Below, in pieces: positions 4,273-38,705 of a stretch of DNA of 64,000 bases. The DNA lies in the sequence record PZ445437.1. The stretch is one strand, 5' to 3'. The position numbers and the translations under genes are program-made. The stretch's first letter is position 1. Each line of letters opens with the position of its first letter. Under the pieces are notes generated by a model, which searched no databases, was not told the DNA's origin, and saw nothing but the letters and a program-made list of their open reading frames with translations. The DNA comes from a phage.

Positions 4273-4473
4273 TTACCTCACATAATTTTCTTCAAGCCAA
4301 TCAATAACATCCAAAGCGTTATCAAAAGTTGAACCATCTACTTTGTCTTCTGTTTCATAATCAAGAACATCTAAGCCTACTCTTCCGTCAACAATAGGCC
4401 ATAAACAAAATAGATATTTCTTTTCTTTTTCAATTTTATCACAAAGACGATAAATCTTTTCTATGTTATTCAT
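4273..4473 (-). CDS. hypothetical protein (66 aa)
   Basis: ORF track. Confidence 0.5.
   Translation of the reverse strand: MNNIEKIYRLCDKIEKEKKYLFCLWPIVDGRVGLDVLDYETEDKVDGSTFDNALDVIDWLEENYVR

Positions 4474-4662: not shown

Positions 4663-4663
<1 letters not shown>
4466..4663 (-). CDS. hypothetical protein (65 aa)
   Basis: ORF track. Confidence 0.5.
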
Positions 4664-5875
<1,212 letters not shown>

Positions 5876-6402: not shown

Positions 6403-6752
6403 TTAGAAAGATCCTGGATGTCTTCTGCGAACTTGTTGAAGGAGTTGTTGATTTGTTTTTCAACCAATCCTGGCTTATGAGCCACCACATCCGCCTTCTT
6501 TGCGTCTTTGCGCAGTTTTTCATTTTCACGCTCAATAGCAGCAATTGCCTCACGATTTTTATTATTCATCGCATCAATATAATTATACTGAATTCGCAAA
6601 TTATTTAATGCTAAAGCGTTTTCATTGGCTGTTTTTGTAATTTCAGTAACTGATGTTTCTAATCTTTCTACCTTATTTTTTAAAATAATAGATGTTCCGC
6701 CCAACGCAATTACAATTAATAACAAGCCTGCTGTCGTATTACTTAATTGCAT
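6399..6752 (-). CDS. membrane-anchored coiled-coil protein (117 aa)
   Basis: N-terminal hydrophobic helix then charged heptad-like region. Confidence 0.55.
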   Translation of the reverse strand: MQLSNTTAGLLLIVIALGGTSIILKNKVERLETSVTEITKTANENALALNNLRIQYNYIDAMNNKNREAIAAIERENEKLRKDAKKADVVAHKPGLVEKQINNSFNKFAEDIQDLSK

Positions 6753-7249
6753 AAAGTTTTAATAACCTCTATAATATCGTCTTGAGAAAGACCGTTAATT
6801 AAAATATGATGTTCAGCTGGAGATTTAGAAATTTTAAAGCATGCCGCAACATCTTCTGCCATATCTGATGCACTACGATTTGGATTACTAATTCCAAGAC
6901 GATGTTTTCCCGTCAAAGGATTAACGATGATATAACATTTGCAGCTATTGATATGAACATTAGGCTGAGTCTGATTAATGAATACTTCGCACTCATACTT
7001 AGCGAGTTGATTTTCTAAAAAGACTTTCATCTCCTCAACCGCATCAGGAAGCATATCACGGGCTTGCTCAAGACGACGATTTCGATATTCTTTAATGGTC
7101 GTTTTCCGCTTGACTTGCTTAGCTAAATCTTTCTTAAGATCGGTGATATATCCAACTCGACGATTTCCTTTGAATACAGAAATCCCATCTGTAGTATCAC
7201 CGTATGCTTCAACGACCATTTCAGTAGTAATAAGCTGTAAATCCATCAT
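6743..7249 (-). CDS. alc: Alc-like transcription terminator of host (cytosine-DNA) transcription, 168 aa
   Basis: Length and position (between pseT cluster and gene 63) as T4 alc; sequence recognised with moderate certainty. Confidence 0.7.
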   Translation of the reverse strand: MMDLQLITTEMVVEAYGDTTDGISVFKGNRRVGYITDLKKDLAKQVKRKTTIKEYRNRRLEQARDMLPDAVEEMKVFLENQLAKYECEVFINQTQPNVHINSCKCYIIVNPLTGKHRLGISNPNRSASDMAEDVAACFKISKSPAEHHILINGLSQDDIIEVIKTLCN

Positions 7250-7310: not shown

Positions 7311-8898
<1,588 letters not shown>

Positions 8899-35778: not shown

Positions 35779-35928
35779 TTACTGCATGACTGTGATAACT
35801 GTCATGATAACACGTTGAATTCCGAACGCAAGAAGACCTCCTGCTACAGCTGGAACAACGCCTAAACCCGCCAGTAAAATGCTACCGGATACTAATGCAG
35901 CGCTTGTAATACCAATGAATGGACTCAT
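35779..35928 (-). CDS. small hydrophobic membrane peptide (about 49 aa), not in ORF track
   Basis: Hand translation MSPFIGITSAALVSGSILLAGLGVVPAVAGGLLAFGIQRV...; GAGGAAATCAA SD; ATGA overlap with gene 52 stop. Confidence 0.35.
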   Translation of the reverse strand: MSPFIGITSAALVSGSILLAGLGVVPAVAGGLLAFGIQRVIMTVITVMQ

Positions 35929-37253
35929 TTGATTTCCTCTAAATCTTTAGTGTATTCAGTAACTACATCAGTAGTTTTCCAATATTCGTTTTCTTCTTTT
36001 TTAGCTTTAGCTTCTTCAGCAAGTTTCTTTGCTTCGTCGGAAGTCATATGAAAAATATTCATTCCGACTAGTTTATCAACATAAGAAGAATACATCTCAA
36101 TTTTAGAAAGTTCTTCGGTCAGTTCTTTACGAGTTTTACCCTGCACAACGATTTCACCTGAAATTACTTTCTTAATGAAATGTGCCTTGGCAAAGGCTAA
36201 ACGAAAAGCTGACTCAGTTTCTTTAATTTTGTTATCAATTCGTTTTTGGACATAAGTTTTACGAACTTCAACGAAATCTTTAATTAAATCAACTACGTTA
36301 TCGTAAACTTGTAGTTTTCCTTTCTCATTAATAACCGTAATATTCTGAGAACGACGCTCAATCAACCCGAAGTCTTTCATAATTTTTGCATGACGTTCTT
36401 CTTCATTATCGCTCAAAGAATATTCTTTGCGGAATTTAACTTTGAATCCAAAACCATGCTCACCACAAGCATCATCCCATGCAATGAAGCCTTTATCTTC
36501 AAGCGGGTCTAAGATTTTACTCACATAAGTTTCACGATCATACTTATACGGAATCTCAGTGATATGCATTTGAGTTCGTGAAGTAAACTTATATGTTCCA
36601 CGAATTTCATATTGCCCATCAATTTCAACGACTTCACCACGAAATTCTGGGAATTCTACTTTCGGTTTAGTTACTTTCTTTCCTTGAAGAGCTTGTAGTA
36701 CAGCTTTCTTAACAGAAGAAACACTATGAGGAAGAATGTAAGTTGCATAACCAGTTGCAATACCGGAAACGCCATTAAGAAGAACAGTAGGAATAATAGG
36801 CAAATAGAAAGCAGGCGGAATGTGTTCTTTATCTTGATGTACCGGAGCATATTCAGTATCTTTATATACGTTATAGAAATTTTTACTTACACGAGCAAAA
36901 ATATAACGACTTGCTGCTGCTTTTTGGACGGTACGAGAACCAAAGTTTCCTTGACCATCTAACAGAGGAAAGTTATTATTCCAAGTGTTAGCCATCAAAG
37001 CACCTGCATCTTGTGCAGAGTTTTCGCCATGGTGATATCCAAGGTCCGCTACACCACCTGCAATAGAAGCGAGTTTGTGAAACTTATCTTTATTTCCTCG
37101 TGCCAAATCAAGAGCTCGAGCAATAACAAATCGTTGAACTGGCTTAAATCCGTCAATCATATTTGGGATAGCACGATTTTCAACCGTGTACATAGCATAA
37201 GCCAATGCTTCATTATCAATGATACTTTTTAAATCGCGATTATTCAGTTGCAT
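35925..37253 (-). CDS. 52: DNA topoisomerase II medium subunit gp52 (442 aa)
   Basis: GyrA-like N-terminal cleavage-domain sequence; 442 aa as T4 gp52. Confidence 0.92.
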   Translation of the reverse strand: MQLNNRDLKSIIDNEALAYAMYTVENRAIPNMIDGFKPVQRFVIARALDLARGNKDKFHKLASIAGGVADLGYHHGENSAQDAGALMANTWNNNFPLLDGQGNFGSRTVQKAAASRYIFARVSKNFYNVYKDTEYAPVHQDKEHIPPAFYLPIIPTVLLNGVSGIATGYATYILPHSVSSVKKAVLQALQGKKVTKPKVEFPEFRGEVVEIDGQYEIRGTYKFTSRTQMHITEIPYKYDRETYVSKILDPLEDKGFIAWDDACGEHGFGFKVKFRKEYSLSDNEEERHAKIMKDFGLIERRSQNITVINEKGKLQVYDNVVDLIKDFVEVRKTYVQKRIDNKIKETESAFRLAFAKAHFIKKVISGEIVVQGKTRKELTEELSKIEMYSSYVDKLVGMNIFHMTSDEAKKLAEEAKAKKEENEYWKTTDVVTEYTKDLEEIK

Positions 37254-37257
37254 AAAT

Positions 37258-37398
37258 TTACCATACTAGTGAATGTAGTGCCATAATAACATCAGAAATG
37301 AAAAGCACGACTTGAATTAATCCGAACATTACTCCATAATATAGTGCTACCAATAAAGTAGCAAGGGCTAGTGAATAGCCCAAGATTTTCTTAATCAT
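37258..37398 (-). CDS. small hydrophobic peptide (about 46 aa), not in ORF track
   Basis: Hand translation MIKKILGYSLALATLLVALYYGVMFGLIQVV...; position of T4 52.1. Confidence 0.35.
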   Translation of the reverse strand: MIKKILGYSLALATLLVALYYGVMFGLIQVVLFISDVIMALHSLVW

Positions 37399-37549
37399 TA
37401 GTAGATAACAACACAAATGTTAAATATGCACACATACCCTGGGCTAAAGCTTGTGAAAACACACTGCTAGCATCGATACAGATAGTTAAAACACATGCTA
37501 CTATCCAACAAATAAATGAAATAACTCCTAATAATTTTGCAATATTCAT
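37391..37549 (-). CDS. small hydrophobic peptide (about 52 aa), ac-like, not in ORF track
   Basis: Hand translation MNIAKLLGVISFICWIVACVLTICIDASSVF...; between 52 and stp where T4 ac lies. Confidence 0.35.
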   Translation of the reverse strand: MNIAKLLGVISFICWIVACVLTICIDASSVFSQALAQGMCAYLTFVLLSTND

Positions 37550-37556
37550 ATTTTCC

Positions 37557-37637
37557 TCACTGGCGTCCGAAGACGCCTTTAGTTTTAAGATTATTACGAT
37601 AGAACTGCATCACGTGTTCGTTGTGGAAATTACTCAT
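37557..37637 (-). CDS. stp: Stp peptide (26 aa)
   Basis: Hand translation gives [26 protein letters not shown], matching the T4 Stp peptide as I recall it; ATG overlaps ndd stop (TAATG). Confidence 0.8.
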
Positions 37638-38095
37638 TAATATGCCTGCAAAACGAATTTAAAGTTATCAGCCAACATACGGTTCATTTCTTCAAGTGTT
37701 TGATACTCGGAATGATGATTACGGGTAAACGCCAAAGCTAACTGACCTTTACCAAATCCTGTCGTCAGAGGTTTCATCTTAGAAGCAGGCAGATAAAATA
37801 CTGTGTATACCATATTGTTATTTGCAATAGTACGTGCAAGCTGAGACCGACGTTGACGAATATGACTTAGAACTGCACTGAATCCTTGCTTAGAACGCTG
37901 ATTACCTACATAAAATCGTGCAGACACACATGGATTACTAAATGGACGACCATCTAATTTACTTACTAAAAAGTAAAATCCAGGTTTAGATAAAATATCT
38001 TTATGCGGAGTTCCCAAAAACCACTCACCACCCTTGATTGTACCAATAACAGTTGCGCCTGCATTATTCAGATCAGTAACAGTCATATATTTCAT
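37637..38095 (-). CDS. ndd: nucleoid disruption protein Ndd
   Basis: Sequence [26 protein letters not shown]... recognised; start placed at internal Met preceded by GAGGAAA. Confidence 0.8.
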
Positions 38096-38155
38096 ATTAA
38101 TTTCCTCTAAATTATTTTCTACTCCAAGGTCGCATGAATACACGCGGCCATTAAA

Positions 38156-38371
38156 TTAATCGTCGCAGTCGACGCTCAATTCCCAAAACTCTTCTACGGT
38201 ATAAGTTTCAGTATCATTTTCAATACAAAAACGTTCATTACTGTTATTTGCTAAAGTAGCATTAACTGTCGGTTTCTCGCTAGTGCTCTTAAGAGGTGAA
38301 ATGCGAATTAACTGATCACCGTTATCTAAACAGAAAATTTCACCAACTTTTACATCTTTAAAACTTTTCAT
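38156..38371 (-). CDS. hypothetical acidic protein (71 aa)
   Basis: ORF track. Confidence 0.5.
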   Translation of the reverse strand: MKSFKDVKVGEIFCLDNGDQLIRISPLKSTSEKPTVNATLANNSNERFCIENDTETYTVEEFWELSVDCDD

Positions 38372-38486
38372 AATTCACCTCAAGGAGTATAAAATCCAAA
38401 TGCAGTTGTTGACCATCCCATCCAATATGGAAAATTTGCACCAATGTAAAACATAAGAATATAAAACCAAATGTTTAGTAAATTCA

Positions 38487-38705
38487 TTATTTTACACCAT
38501 TCCAAATTGTTTCAACTACAGATTTTAAGCCATTTTGATGAATGTCCATTCCGACTACCGCCATCAAATAGATTCCAACTACAACTGAACCTAAGGCAAA
38601 AATCAGCATGAAAATGAATAAAGCCGGAAAAATATTATCGAAAAACCATTCAATAAATGTAAAAGCACTGCGTTTACGCTTCATATTTTCCTCACATAAA
38701 TCCAA
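38487..38705 (-). CDS. small membrane protein (72 aa)
   Basis: ORF track; two hydrophobic segments. Confidence 0.45.
   Translation of the reverse strand: MDLCEENMKRKRSAFTFIEWFFDNIFPALFIFMLIFALGSVVVGIYLMAVVGMDIHQNGLKSVVETIWNGVK

Follow-up and report, generated by a model that had tools for sequence, protein, structure and literature searches.

Stp of phage T4 is the classic case of an anti-restriction peptide that is made by a phage and sensed by a host abortive-infection nuclease. Its gene, together with ac and 52.1, has been annotated in T4 since the 1980s. In prr+ E. coli, activation of the latent tRNA-Lys anticodon nuclease requires T4 Stp, and Stp alone suffices for it (PMC3014915; PMC1484252); the peptide relieves restriction by type IC enzymes (EcoprrI, EcoR124I), not by type IA enzymes (PMC3014915). 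The peptide is active when expressed from a plasmid and when made synthetically, its suppressor mutations cluster at residues 4-14, and removing the last eight codons affects it only moderately (PMC3014915). Once cleaved, the tRNA is repaired by Pnk and Rnl1, whose genes are, like stp, delayed-early (PMC3014915; PMC1484252). A T4 time course classes stp, ac and 52.1 as early RNAs and, at the protein level, detects Ndd while giving no protein class (NA) for Stp, Ac and 52.1 (PMC9697503, supplementary file 4; the three genes are absent from the main text). Such missing classes are expected for very small or hydrophobic peptides.

We examined how this gene group is represented in a 64,000-nucleotide stretch of phage DNA (record PZ445437.1), which we call the window. 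The list of open reading frames (ORFs) made for it left a gap between gene 52 and ndd, and the original prediction, read from the letters, was that three short genes including stp had been missed there. The window belongs to a Tequatrovirus. In this 1.3-kb region it is about 98% identical to its best relatives, teqhal, UFV13, KAW1E185 and RB14, and the region is matched by 566 phage records; the inner 501 nt are 99.6% identical to Yersinia phage phiD1. When we repeated ORF calling on the minus strand with a minimum of 20 codons and inspected positions 36900-38100, all three short ORFs appeared, and their absence from the earlier list was traced to its length cut-off.

The gap is bounded on both sides by well-recognized minus-strand genes. 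Upstream lies ndd, encoding the nucleoid disruption protein of 152 aa (37637-38095; PF06591 at 314 bits and alignment to T4 Ndd), and downstream lies gene 52, encoding the medium subunit of topoisomerase II (35925-37253; PF00521 at 258.6 bits). Between them, all on the minus strand, we place stp (37557-37637, ATG start, 26 aa), ac, the acridine sensitivity/resistance locus (37391-37549, ATG start, 52 aa), and 52.1 (37258-37398, 46 aa). For the last of these, the ORF list opens the frame at a TTG (37258..37416), and the conserved ATG at 37398 gives the 46-residue product. We are highly confident that the interval contains orthologs of the T4 early genes stp, ac and 52.1, arranged head to tail in the string ndd-stp-ac-52.1-52. 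These are genes that have already been described, and their absence from the ORF track is a length-threshold artifact rather than a discovery. For the window itself, the result is thus an annotation correction only, which returns three real genes to a gap that a length-filtered track had emptied.

The junctions between these genes are extremely tight. The TAA stop of ndd and the ATG of stp have one base in common (TAATG; junction GCATATTAATGAGT), just as the original prediction had described. At its other end, the TGA stop of stp overlaps the GAGG Shine-Dalgarno sequence of ac (37555-37558, minus strand), which sits 5 nt ahead of the ac ATG (CAGTGAGGAAAATATG), so that the stop and the ribosome-binding site have TGAGG in common, followed by AAAATATG. 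Except in T2, the string TGAGGAAAA(T/C)ATG at this stp-ac junction is conserved in Straboviridae loci, regardless of which ac allele comes next. Farther downstream, the ac stop overlaps the 52.1 ATG by eight bases (ATGATTAA), and a gap of only 4 nt separates the 52.1 stop from the start of gene 52 (TAA-ATTT-ATG; junction TGGTAAATTTATG). Gene order and junctions match those annotated in T4, RB32, RB14, AugustSocin and JS10, and the record of T4 strain 147 lists ndd, stp (81 nt), ac (156 nt), 52.1 (141 nt) and 52 in identical order and with identical overlaps. Because the junctions overlap or nearly abut, we expect that ndd, stp, ac, 52.1 and 52 would be transcribed together and that they are probably coupled in translation.

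The identification of stp rests on an exact match. The original prediction had matched the 26-codon ORF to T4 Stp, and a pairwise alignment to the annotated T4 protein bore this out with 26 of 26 residues identical. A tblastn search with the 26-mer returned 422 records at 99% identity or more, T4 included, and full-length family matches were obtained both to PF08133 (residues 1-26 of 26; 75.3 bits, cut-off 25) and to phrog_6763 (E = 4.4e-21). With a net charge of +3 and a GRAVY of -1.03, the peptide is basic and hydrophilic. Its N-terminal 18 residues, which include the region of the T4 loss-of-function suppressor mutations (residues 4-14, PMC3014915), are intact and identical to those of T4. 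NCBIfam models cover none of Stp, Ac, 52.1 and Ndd, and a search of PDB sequences with Stp at E values up to 10 gave no match. Compared with T4 Stp (UniProt P62765, the anticodon nuclease activator family of PF08133), the protein does not differ at all, and the overlap with the ndd stop, the hairpin at the 3' end and the partner genes pseT and rnlA are likewise present. At the DNA level, the window differs from stp of T4 strain 147 by two synonymous changes, in codon 5 (CAC; CAT in T4) and codon 15 (AAT; AAC in T4).

The product of the next gene, ac, corresponds to the 51-residue T4 Ac (UniProt P18924) with which it has its slot, its start context and 51 residues in common; it differs by a single Thr (codon ACT) inserted before the C-terminal Asn-Asp, giving 52 aa. 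This longer form is also found in teqhal and Solly. It matches phrog_2501 over its full length (E = 3.7e-25), and we found no match for it among the Pfam or NCBIfam models. Across phages, the ac slot holds four very dissimilar allele families (T4-type, RB32/RB69-type, JS10/AugustSocin-type and dhaeg-type), all of which encode hydrophobic products of 48-54 aa and are flanked by conserved junctions. Deletion of ac makes T4 acriflavine-resistant and expression of Ac sensitizes E. coli (bioRxiv 10.1101/2025.06.30.662393; PMC13250531). By analogy, Ac of the window would be a small inner-membrane peptide whose presence renders infection acridine-sensitive. A 2025 preprint proposes that Ac acts by interfering with AcrAB-TolC efflux (bioRxiv 10.1101/2025.06.30.662393; PMC13250531), and the efflux-pump model is best treated as a proposal on that preprint basis.

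The third peptide, 52.1, is identical to T4 gp52.1 (UniProt P18922) at 45 of its 46 positions. The two have the same length, an ATG that overlaps the ac stop and the slot directly upstream of gene 52; the one difference, A14T, also occurs in teqhal, Solly, AugustSocin and others. It matches phrog_3595 over its full length and PF24129 (DUF7396) across residues 1-46 of 46 (81.9 bits, cut-off 27). With GRAVY values of 1.42 and 1.68, Ac and 52.1 are both strongly hydrophobic, in keeping with small membrane peptides, and they occupy the positions annotated for ac and 52.1 in T4; the original prediction, which had described two hydrophobic ORFs of about 52 and 46 aa in these slots, was therefore accurate.

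We next compared substitution patterns in phages that carry these genes. Across this interval, the window was set beside 13 other Straboviridae (T4, teqhal, Solly, T2, RB32, AugustSocin, JS10, Yersinia P8, IME341, dhaeg, Shfl2, SA35RD and SQ17) and one Kagunavirus. Within stp codons 1-18, third positions account for 10 of the 13 variable alignment columns, and pN/pS summed over pairs of 13 sequences is 0.054 (pN 0.026, pS 0.48), compared with 1.4 and 6.7 when the same DNA is read in its two shifted frames. For 52.1, pN/pS is 0.205 in a set of 14 phages comprising Tequatrovirus, Dhakavirus, Mosigvirus and an unclassified Yersinia phage. Taken together, the shifted frames of stp and 52.1 give values of 0.8-6.7. 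From the third-position pattern and the low in-frame ratios, we conclude that stp and 52.1 bear the signature of translated, constrained coding sequences with purifying selection on the peptides, and that 52.1 is a very strongly conserved 46-residue peptide with the predicted character of a membrane protein.

The 3' end of stp has a second feature, which the original prediction had also placed correctly. A hairpin, GGCGUC-UUCG-GACGCC, lies at 37562-37577 on the minus strand, where it takes up codons 21-25 of stp plus the first base of codon 26. Its 6-bp GC-rich stem and its UUCG loop, closed by a C-G pair, form in the minimum-energy structure as well as in the centroid, and the 71-nt context has a minimum free energy of -15.8 kcal/mol (z = -2.81) that none of 200 shuffled sequences equaled. 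Every Straboviridae stp we examined has the hairpin except that of T2, in which the Stp C-terminus differs. Four variants are seen among these genes: a UUUG loop, a stem that reads GGUGUC, a 3' arm with an A-to-G change, and a terminal C-to-U change. The second and third each give a U-G wobble and the last a G-U wobble. All of the stem changes retain pairing, and no compensatory double change was present among the Straboviridae stp genes examined. Because the variants consist only of loop changes or one-sided wobble changes, selection on the hairpin structure is suggested rather than proven. In the Kagunavirus copies, KGVFG is encoded by other codons and the hairpin is absent, so the peptide sequence does not by itself force the RNA structure.

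These observations allow us to weigh other explanations for the interval. Frames of 26-52 codons could arise by chance in an AT-rich non-coding spacer between ndd and gene 52; the same 2 kb, read in all six frames, contains 31 ORFs of 20 codons or more, and many public annotations omit some of the three genes. However, chance frames would not be expected to match curated families from end to end, to vary at third positions with pN/pS of 0.05-0.2 in frame and 0.8-6.7 out of frame, or to keep their start and stop junctions across three genera, and the stp and ac genes of T4 were defined genetically by mutations (PMC3014915; PMC13250531). We regard this explanation as practically untenable, the substitution pattern having already refuted it. 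It is also very improbable, if slightly less so, that what is conserved in the stp segment is an RNA element, made up of the hairpin and the ac leader, and not a peptide. That idea draws on the near invariance of the hairpin and the downstream TGAGGAAAATATG in Straboviridae and on a region that folds better than its shuffles. Yet residues 1-18, the most conserved part of the protein, are encoded upstream of the hairpin, where synonymous sites vary freely, and phages of Kagunavirus, Drexlerviridae and Skatevirus retain the peptide motif with other codons and without an equivalent hairpin; in Kagunavirus it is the T4-type peptide that is kept in this way. The activity of plasmid-expressed and synthetic Stp (PMC3014915) argues in the same direction, as does an Rfam scan of 36900-38700, in which no RNA family was matched at E values up to 1, so the hairpin corresponds to no catalogued element. 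We retain the reading of stp as a gene whose peptide is under selection.

What the hairpin does is a separate question. Several records annotate a terminator here on the gene strand, the one in KAW1E185 being given -10.3 kcal/mol, and a GC-rich stem with a UUCG loop is compatible with a rho-independent terminator that would end the ndd-stp transcript. The sense strand does not continue in the way such a terminator would: the tail after the stem is AGUGAGGAAAAUAUG, which has no U-tract and instead contains the ac ribosome-binding site, so that this site and the ac ATG lie only 3-12 nt away. Three further genes, ac, 52.1 and 52, follow downstream, and there is no space for a new promoter ahead of ac. 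On the plus (antisense) strand, the palindrome is followed by TTTAGTTTTA, a T-rich tail, and a simple terminator scan was positive on that strand only. A U-tract directly after the stem on the transcribed strand defines a rho-independent terminator, and because the stp hairpin has none, a classical sense-strand terminator is unlikely. C(UUCG)G hairpins are reportedly abundant in T4 mRNAs, a finding said to go back to Tuerk et al. in PNAS in 1988. The window fits this general feature of T4 mRNA, since CTTCGG occurs 29 times in it against 13.3 expected, an approximately 2-fold over-representation. The stp hairpin resembles the T4 hairpins in its GC-rich 6-bp stem, its C(UUCG)G closure and its position at a gene boundary, and differs from them in lying inside a coding sequence, in the last five to six codons. 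Its most probable role lies in RNA stability or processing, or in modulating ac translation, and termination is less likely.

The same searches, by tblastn and blastn, also matched siphoviruses. Stp-like ORFs of 25-27 aa are present in Drexlerviridae (T1-like), Skatevirus and Kagunavirus phages, with good ribosome-binding sites, and nearly all of them are unannotated. In the Kagunavirus Ro145c2YLVW, an unannotated ORF of 25 aa has 86% DNA identity to stp of the window and lies downstream of a terminator-like hairpin, with a GGAG ribosome-binding site. Genomes of Tunavirus, Henuseptimavirus and Skatevirus have ORFs of 26-27 aa with a common N-terminal motif of 18 residues. The Skatevirus-type peptide is MSNWHNEHIMQWYRRRIKAITNSYEVQ and the Drexlerviridae-type peptide has 26 aa; the motif common to the Stp-like peptides is M-S-x-[FW]-H-N-E-H-[VI]-M-Q-[FW]-[YH]-R-x-x-[LI]-K. 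In one record, U136B, the copy is already annotated as 'putative activator of host endonuclease'. Within the library searched, we found no paper that links Stp to Drexlerviridae, Tunavirus, Guernseyvirinae or T1-like phages.

We also scanned IMG/VR with degenerate codons for H-N-E-H-[VI]-M-Q-[FW...] and obtained 57 loci, where about one match would be expected by chance according to our own estimate, for which we guessed a collection size of about 1e11 bases. They comprise 24 loci of Skatevirus type, 14 of Drexlerviridae type, 13 of Straboviridae type and 6 of Kagunavirus type. In 56 of the 57, a start codon is found four codons ahead of the motif match, and the ORF has 25-27 codons in nearly all. 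Four loci depart from this pattern: the ORFs of L049 and L055 are shorter, that of L050 runs on into the downstream gene, and the start of L069 is changed. In L049, a substitution removed the ATG and left only a TTG one codon upstream. The N-terminal part shared by the Stp-like peptides coincides with the functional region known from the literature. The 86% identity of the Kagunavirus copy to stp of the window points to recent horizontal transfer, and Stp may be part of a wider, almost wholly unannotated family of 25-27-residue peptides that extends beyond the T-even phages. That the siphovirus peptides are homologs of Stp is, taken by itself, very probable; the joint claim that they are both true homologs and functional restriction inhibitors we consider evenly balanced. 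If it is true, they would provide natural variants with which to map how so small a peptide disables a type I enzyme. The ORFs in the three siphovirus groups could merit a short experimental follow-up.

Public records of T4-like phages show how easily these genes are overlooked. In the 30 Straboviridae rows of a spread sample of Stp tblastn matches, stp is named in five, an unnamed CDS stands at the site in three, and one calls it 'naphthalene 1,2-dioxygenase'; the remainder have ndd only, a 'terminator' or nothing. A CDS of any kind is found at stp in only about a quarter of the sampled public T4-like records. The 'naphthalene 1,2-dioxygenase' label occurs at stp in two records in all among the tblastn and blastn matches. 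The RB32 record states of stp and 52.1 that they were 'not predicted by GeneMarkS or Glimmer'. Because only about a quarter of the sampled records have a CDS at stp and two are mislabeled, we conclude that annotation pipelines systematically under-call genes of this class.

The window also encodes the enzymes that repair the tRNA damage associated with Stp, as had been predicted, and both are full length against T4 structures. On the minus strand at 4663-5571, pseT encodes the polynucleotide 5'-kinase/3'-phosphatase (PF25109 and PF13671, phrog_505), for which the alignment to the T4 Pnk structure 1LTQ scores 690 bits and pairs residues 2-302 with 1-301. Since the ORF opens with MMKKIIL, translation would start at either 5571 or 5568. 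Gene 63 (rnlA), for RNA ligase 1, lies on the minus strand at 7311-8435 and encodes 374 aa from an ATG at 8435; it matches TIGR02308 at 631.9 bits and the T4 Rnl1 structure 2C5U at 844.7 bits. Between the two is alc (6743-7249).

We infer the biochemical functions of Stp, Pnk, Rnl1 and Ac in the phage of the window from the T4 literature. If they carry over, Stp, as a basic and hydrophilic 26-mer, would bind and inhibit type IC enzymes through its N-terminal 18 residues. In hosts that have prrC inside the EcoprrI locus, this inhibition would free latent PrrC, the anticodon loop of tRNA-Lys would be cut, and phage Pnk (pseT) and RNA ligase 1 (gene 63) would then heal and reseal the cut tRNA. 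The original prediction described Stp as the peptide that triggers PrrC. This stands as an outcome in prr+ hosts and falls as a description of the direct target, which according to the literature is the type IC enzyme EcoprrI, and also EcoR124I, with PrrC activation being the response of the host (PMC3014915, PMC12707154). Because PrrC activation is the host's answer to the inhibition of EcoprrI, triggering it is a consequence in prr+ hosts and not the purpose of the phage.

The conservation of stp raises a question of its own. The DNA of T4-type phages is modified with glucosyl-HMC and should need no protection from type I restriction, so the strong conservation of stp in Straboviridae is not fully accounted for. 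To our knowledge, the siphoviruses of Drexlerviridae, Skatevirus and Kagunavirus do not have T4-type hypermodified DNA. If so, the distribution of Stp-like ORFs would fit inhibition of type I(C) restriction as the ancestral function and PrrC activation as a host counter-measure.

Stp can also be compared with better-known inhibitors of type I enzymes. Ocr of phage T7 is a DNA mimic of 116 aa that acts against many type I and BREX systems, whereas Stp, which has no sequence relationship to it, is a basic peptide of 26 aa that is specific for type IC (PMC3014915, PMC12707154). Despite these differences, Stp and PrrC follow a logic in common with T7 Ocr and PARIS and with ArdA/ArdB, in which a small inhibitor of type I restriction also triggers a back-up abortive system that cuts tRNA (PMC12409349).

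Stp-like ORFs of 25-27 aa, almost all of them unannotated, also occur in three groups of siphoviruses: Kagunavirus, Skatevirus and the Drexlerviridae (Tunavirus, Henuseptimavirus and others). We located them at 2501-2578 of the Kagunavirus Ro145c2YLVW locus (L009), at 1201-1281 of both L015 and L016 (the latter from Klebsiella phage Samwise), and among loci L017-L020 and L023-L078. Among the pattern matches in IMG/VR, 44 of 57 belong to non-Straboviridae types. The siphovirus ORFs share the motif M-S-x-[FW]-HNEH-[VI]-MQ-[FW]-[YH]-R-x-x-[LI]-K, and most are preceded by a ribosome-binding site (AAGGAG, GGAG or GAGG). This motif corresponds to the N-terminal 18 residues of Stp, the region that genetic analysis in T4 identified as functional (PMC3014915). 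Some 480 nt further downstream in Samwise, the genome encodes a 178-aa protein (L016:1758-2294) whose match to polynucleotide kinase-phosphatase is limited to the phosphatase (HAD) domain (PF25109, 76 bits); this might reflect a connection with tRNA repair.

The Ro145c2YLVW copy (L009:2501-2571) is 85.9% identical in DNA sequence to stp in the window (37567-37637), and it lacks the 3' hairpin. This identity suggests that stp moved horizontally, and fairly recently, between a myovirus and a siphovirus lineage.

JS98-type Dhakavirus genomes carry a second copy of stp without a start codon (reverse strand of the JS98 locus, L071, at about 4316-4450; also L064), in which a 5' fragment of 52.1 runs in frame into codon 3 and the remainder of stp. 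The two are joined across the microhomology AGTAAT, and downstream of the fusion lies another ac allele. Together, the fusion and the additional ac allele indicate that the stp-ac-52.1 cassette has been duplicated or recombined in these genomes. In the T2 record PV958097 (L004, locus positions 364-610), ac has an ochre codon at codon 11 (TCA to TAA), and Stp is 27 aa long with a replaced C-terminus (…LKNFGILGFKK); its stp has no hairpin. When the corresponding interval was compared, stp was wholly missing from the Mosigvirus genomes SA35RD and SQ17.

An additional ORF encoding a 57-aa cysteine-rich membrane protein (MKALFVMGYLLVLALF...CKMCGVYE) occupies the ndd-stp interval in the T4-like phages Solly, Shfl2, IME341, dhaeg and JS98 (L003:1064-1237 in the reverse-complemented locus, L010:363-536, L011:365-538, L013:364-537, and L071). 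Its 3' end overlaps the stp ATG, and it is present neither in the window nor in T4. On the other side of stp, ac (37391-37549 in the window; L005-L008 and L010-L014 elsewhere) is hypervariable: its one slot is filled by four or more families of alleles that differ greatly from each other. Across families the alleles encode 48-54 hydrophobic residues between conserved junctions, and the flanking stp and 52.1 are almost invariant. Such a pattern resembles what exchange of cassettes or diversifying selection would leave.

The public records of T4 (OL964745.1) and vB_Eco_F25 (OP870144.1) have a CDS at the position of stp named "naphthalene 1,2-dioxygenase", an evident automated misannotation. Among the matches sampled, the majority of the remaining T4-like records show no CDS at this site.

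A simple sequence scan returned a promoter-like site, TTGCTA-17-TATTAT, at 37336-37364 on the minus strand, within 52.1 and upstream of gene 52. T4 has TGCTGCTTTA at this position, which we take to resemble a MotA box; in the window it is altered by the A14T codon change of 52.1. The scan also scored the stp palindrome (37562-37577) as terminator-like on the plus (antisense) strand, where TTTAGTTTTA comes next. Antisense transcription arriving from the gene 52 side could be stopped there. Over both strands of the whole window CTTCGG occurs 29 times, compared to 13.3 ± 3.6 expected from shuffles, none of 100 of which reached 29. This excess fits the general enrichment of C(UUCG)G hairpins in T4.
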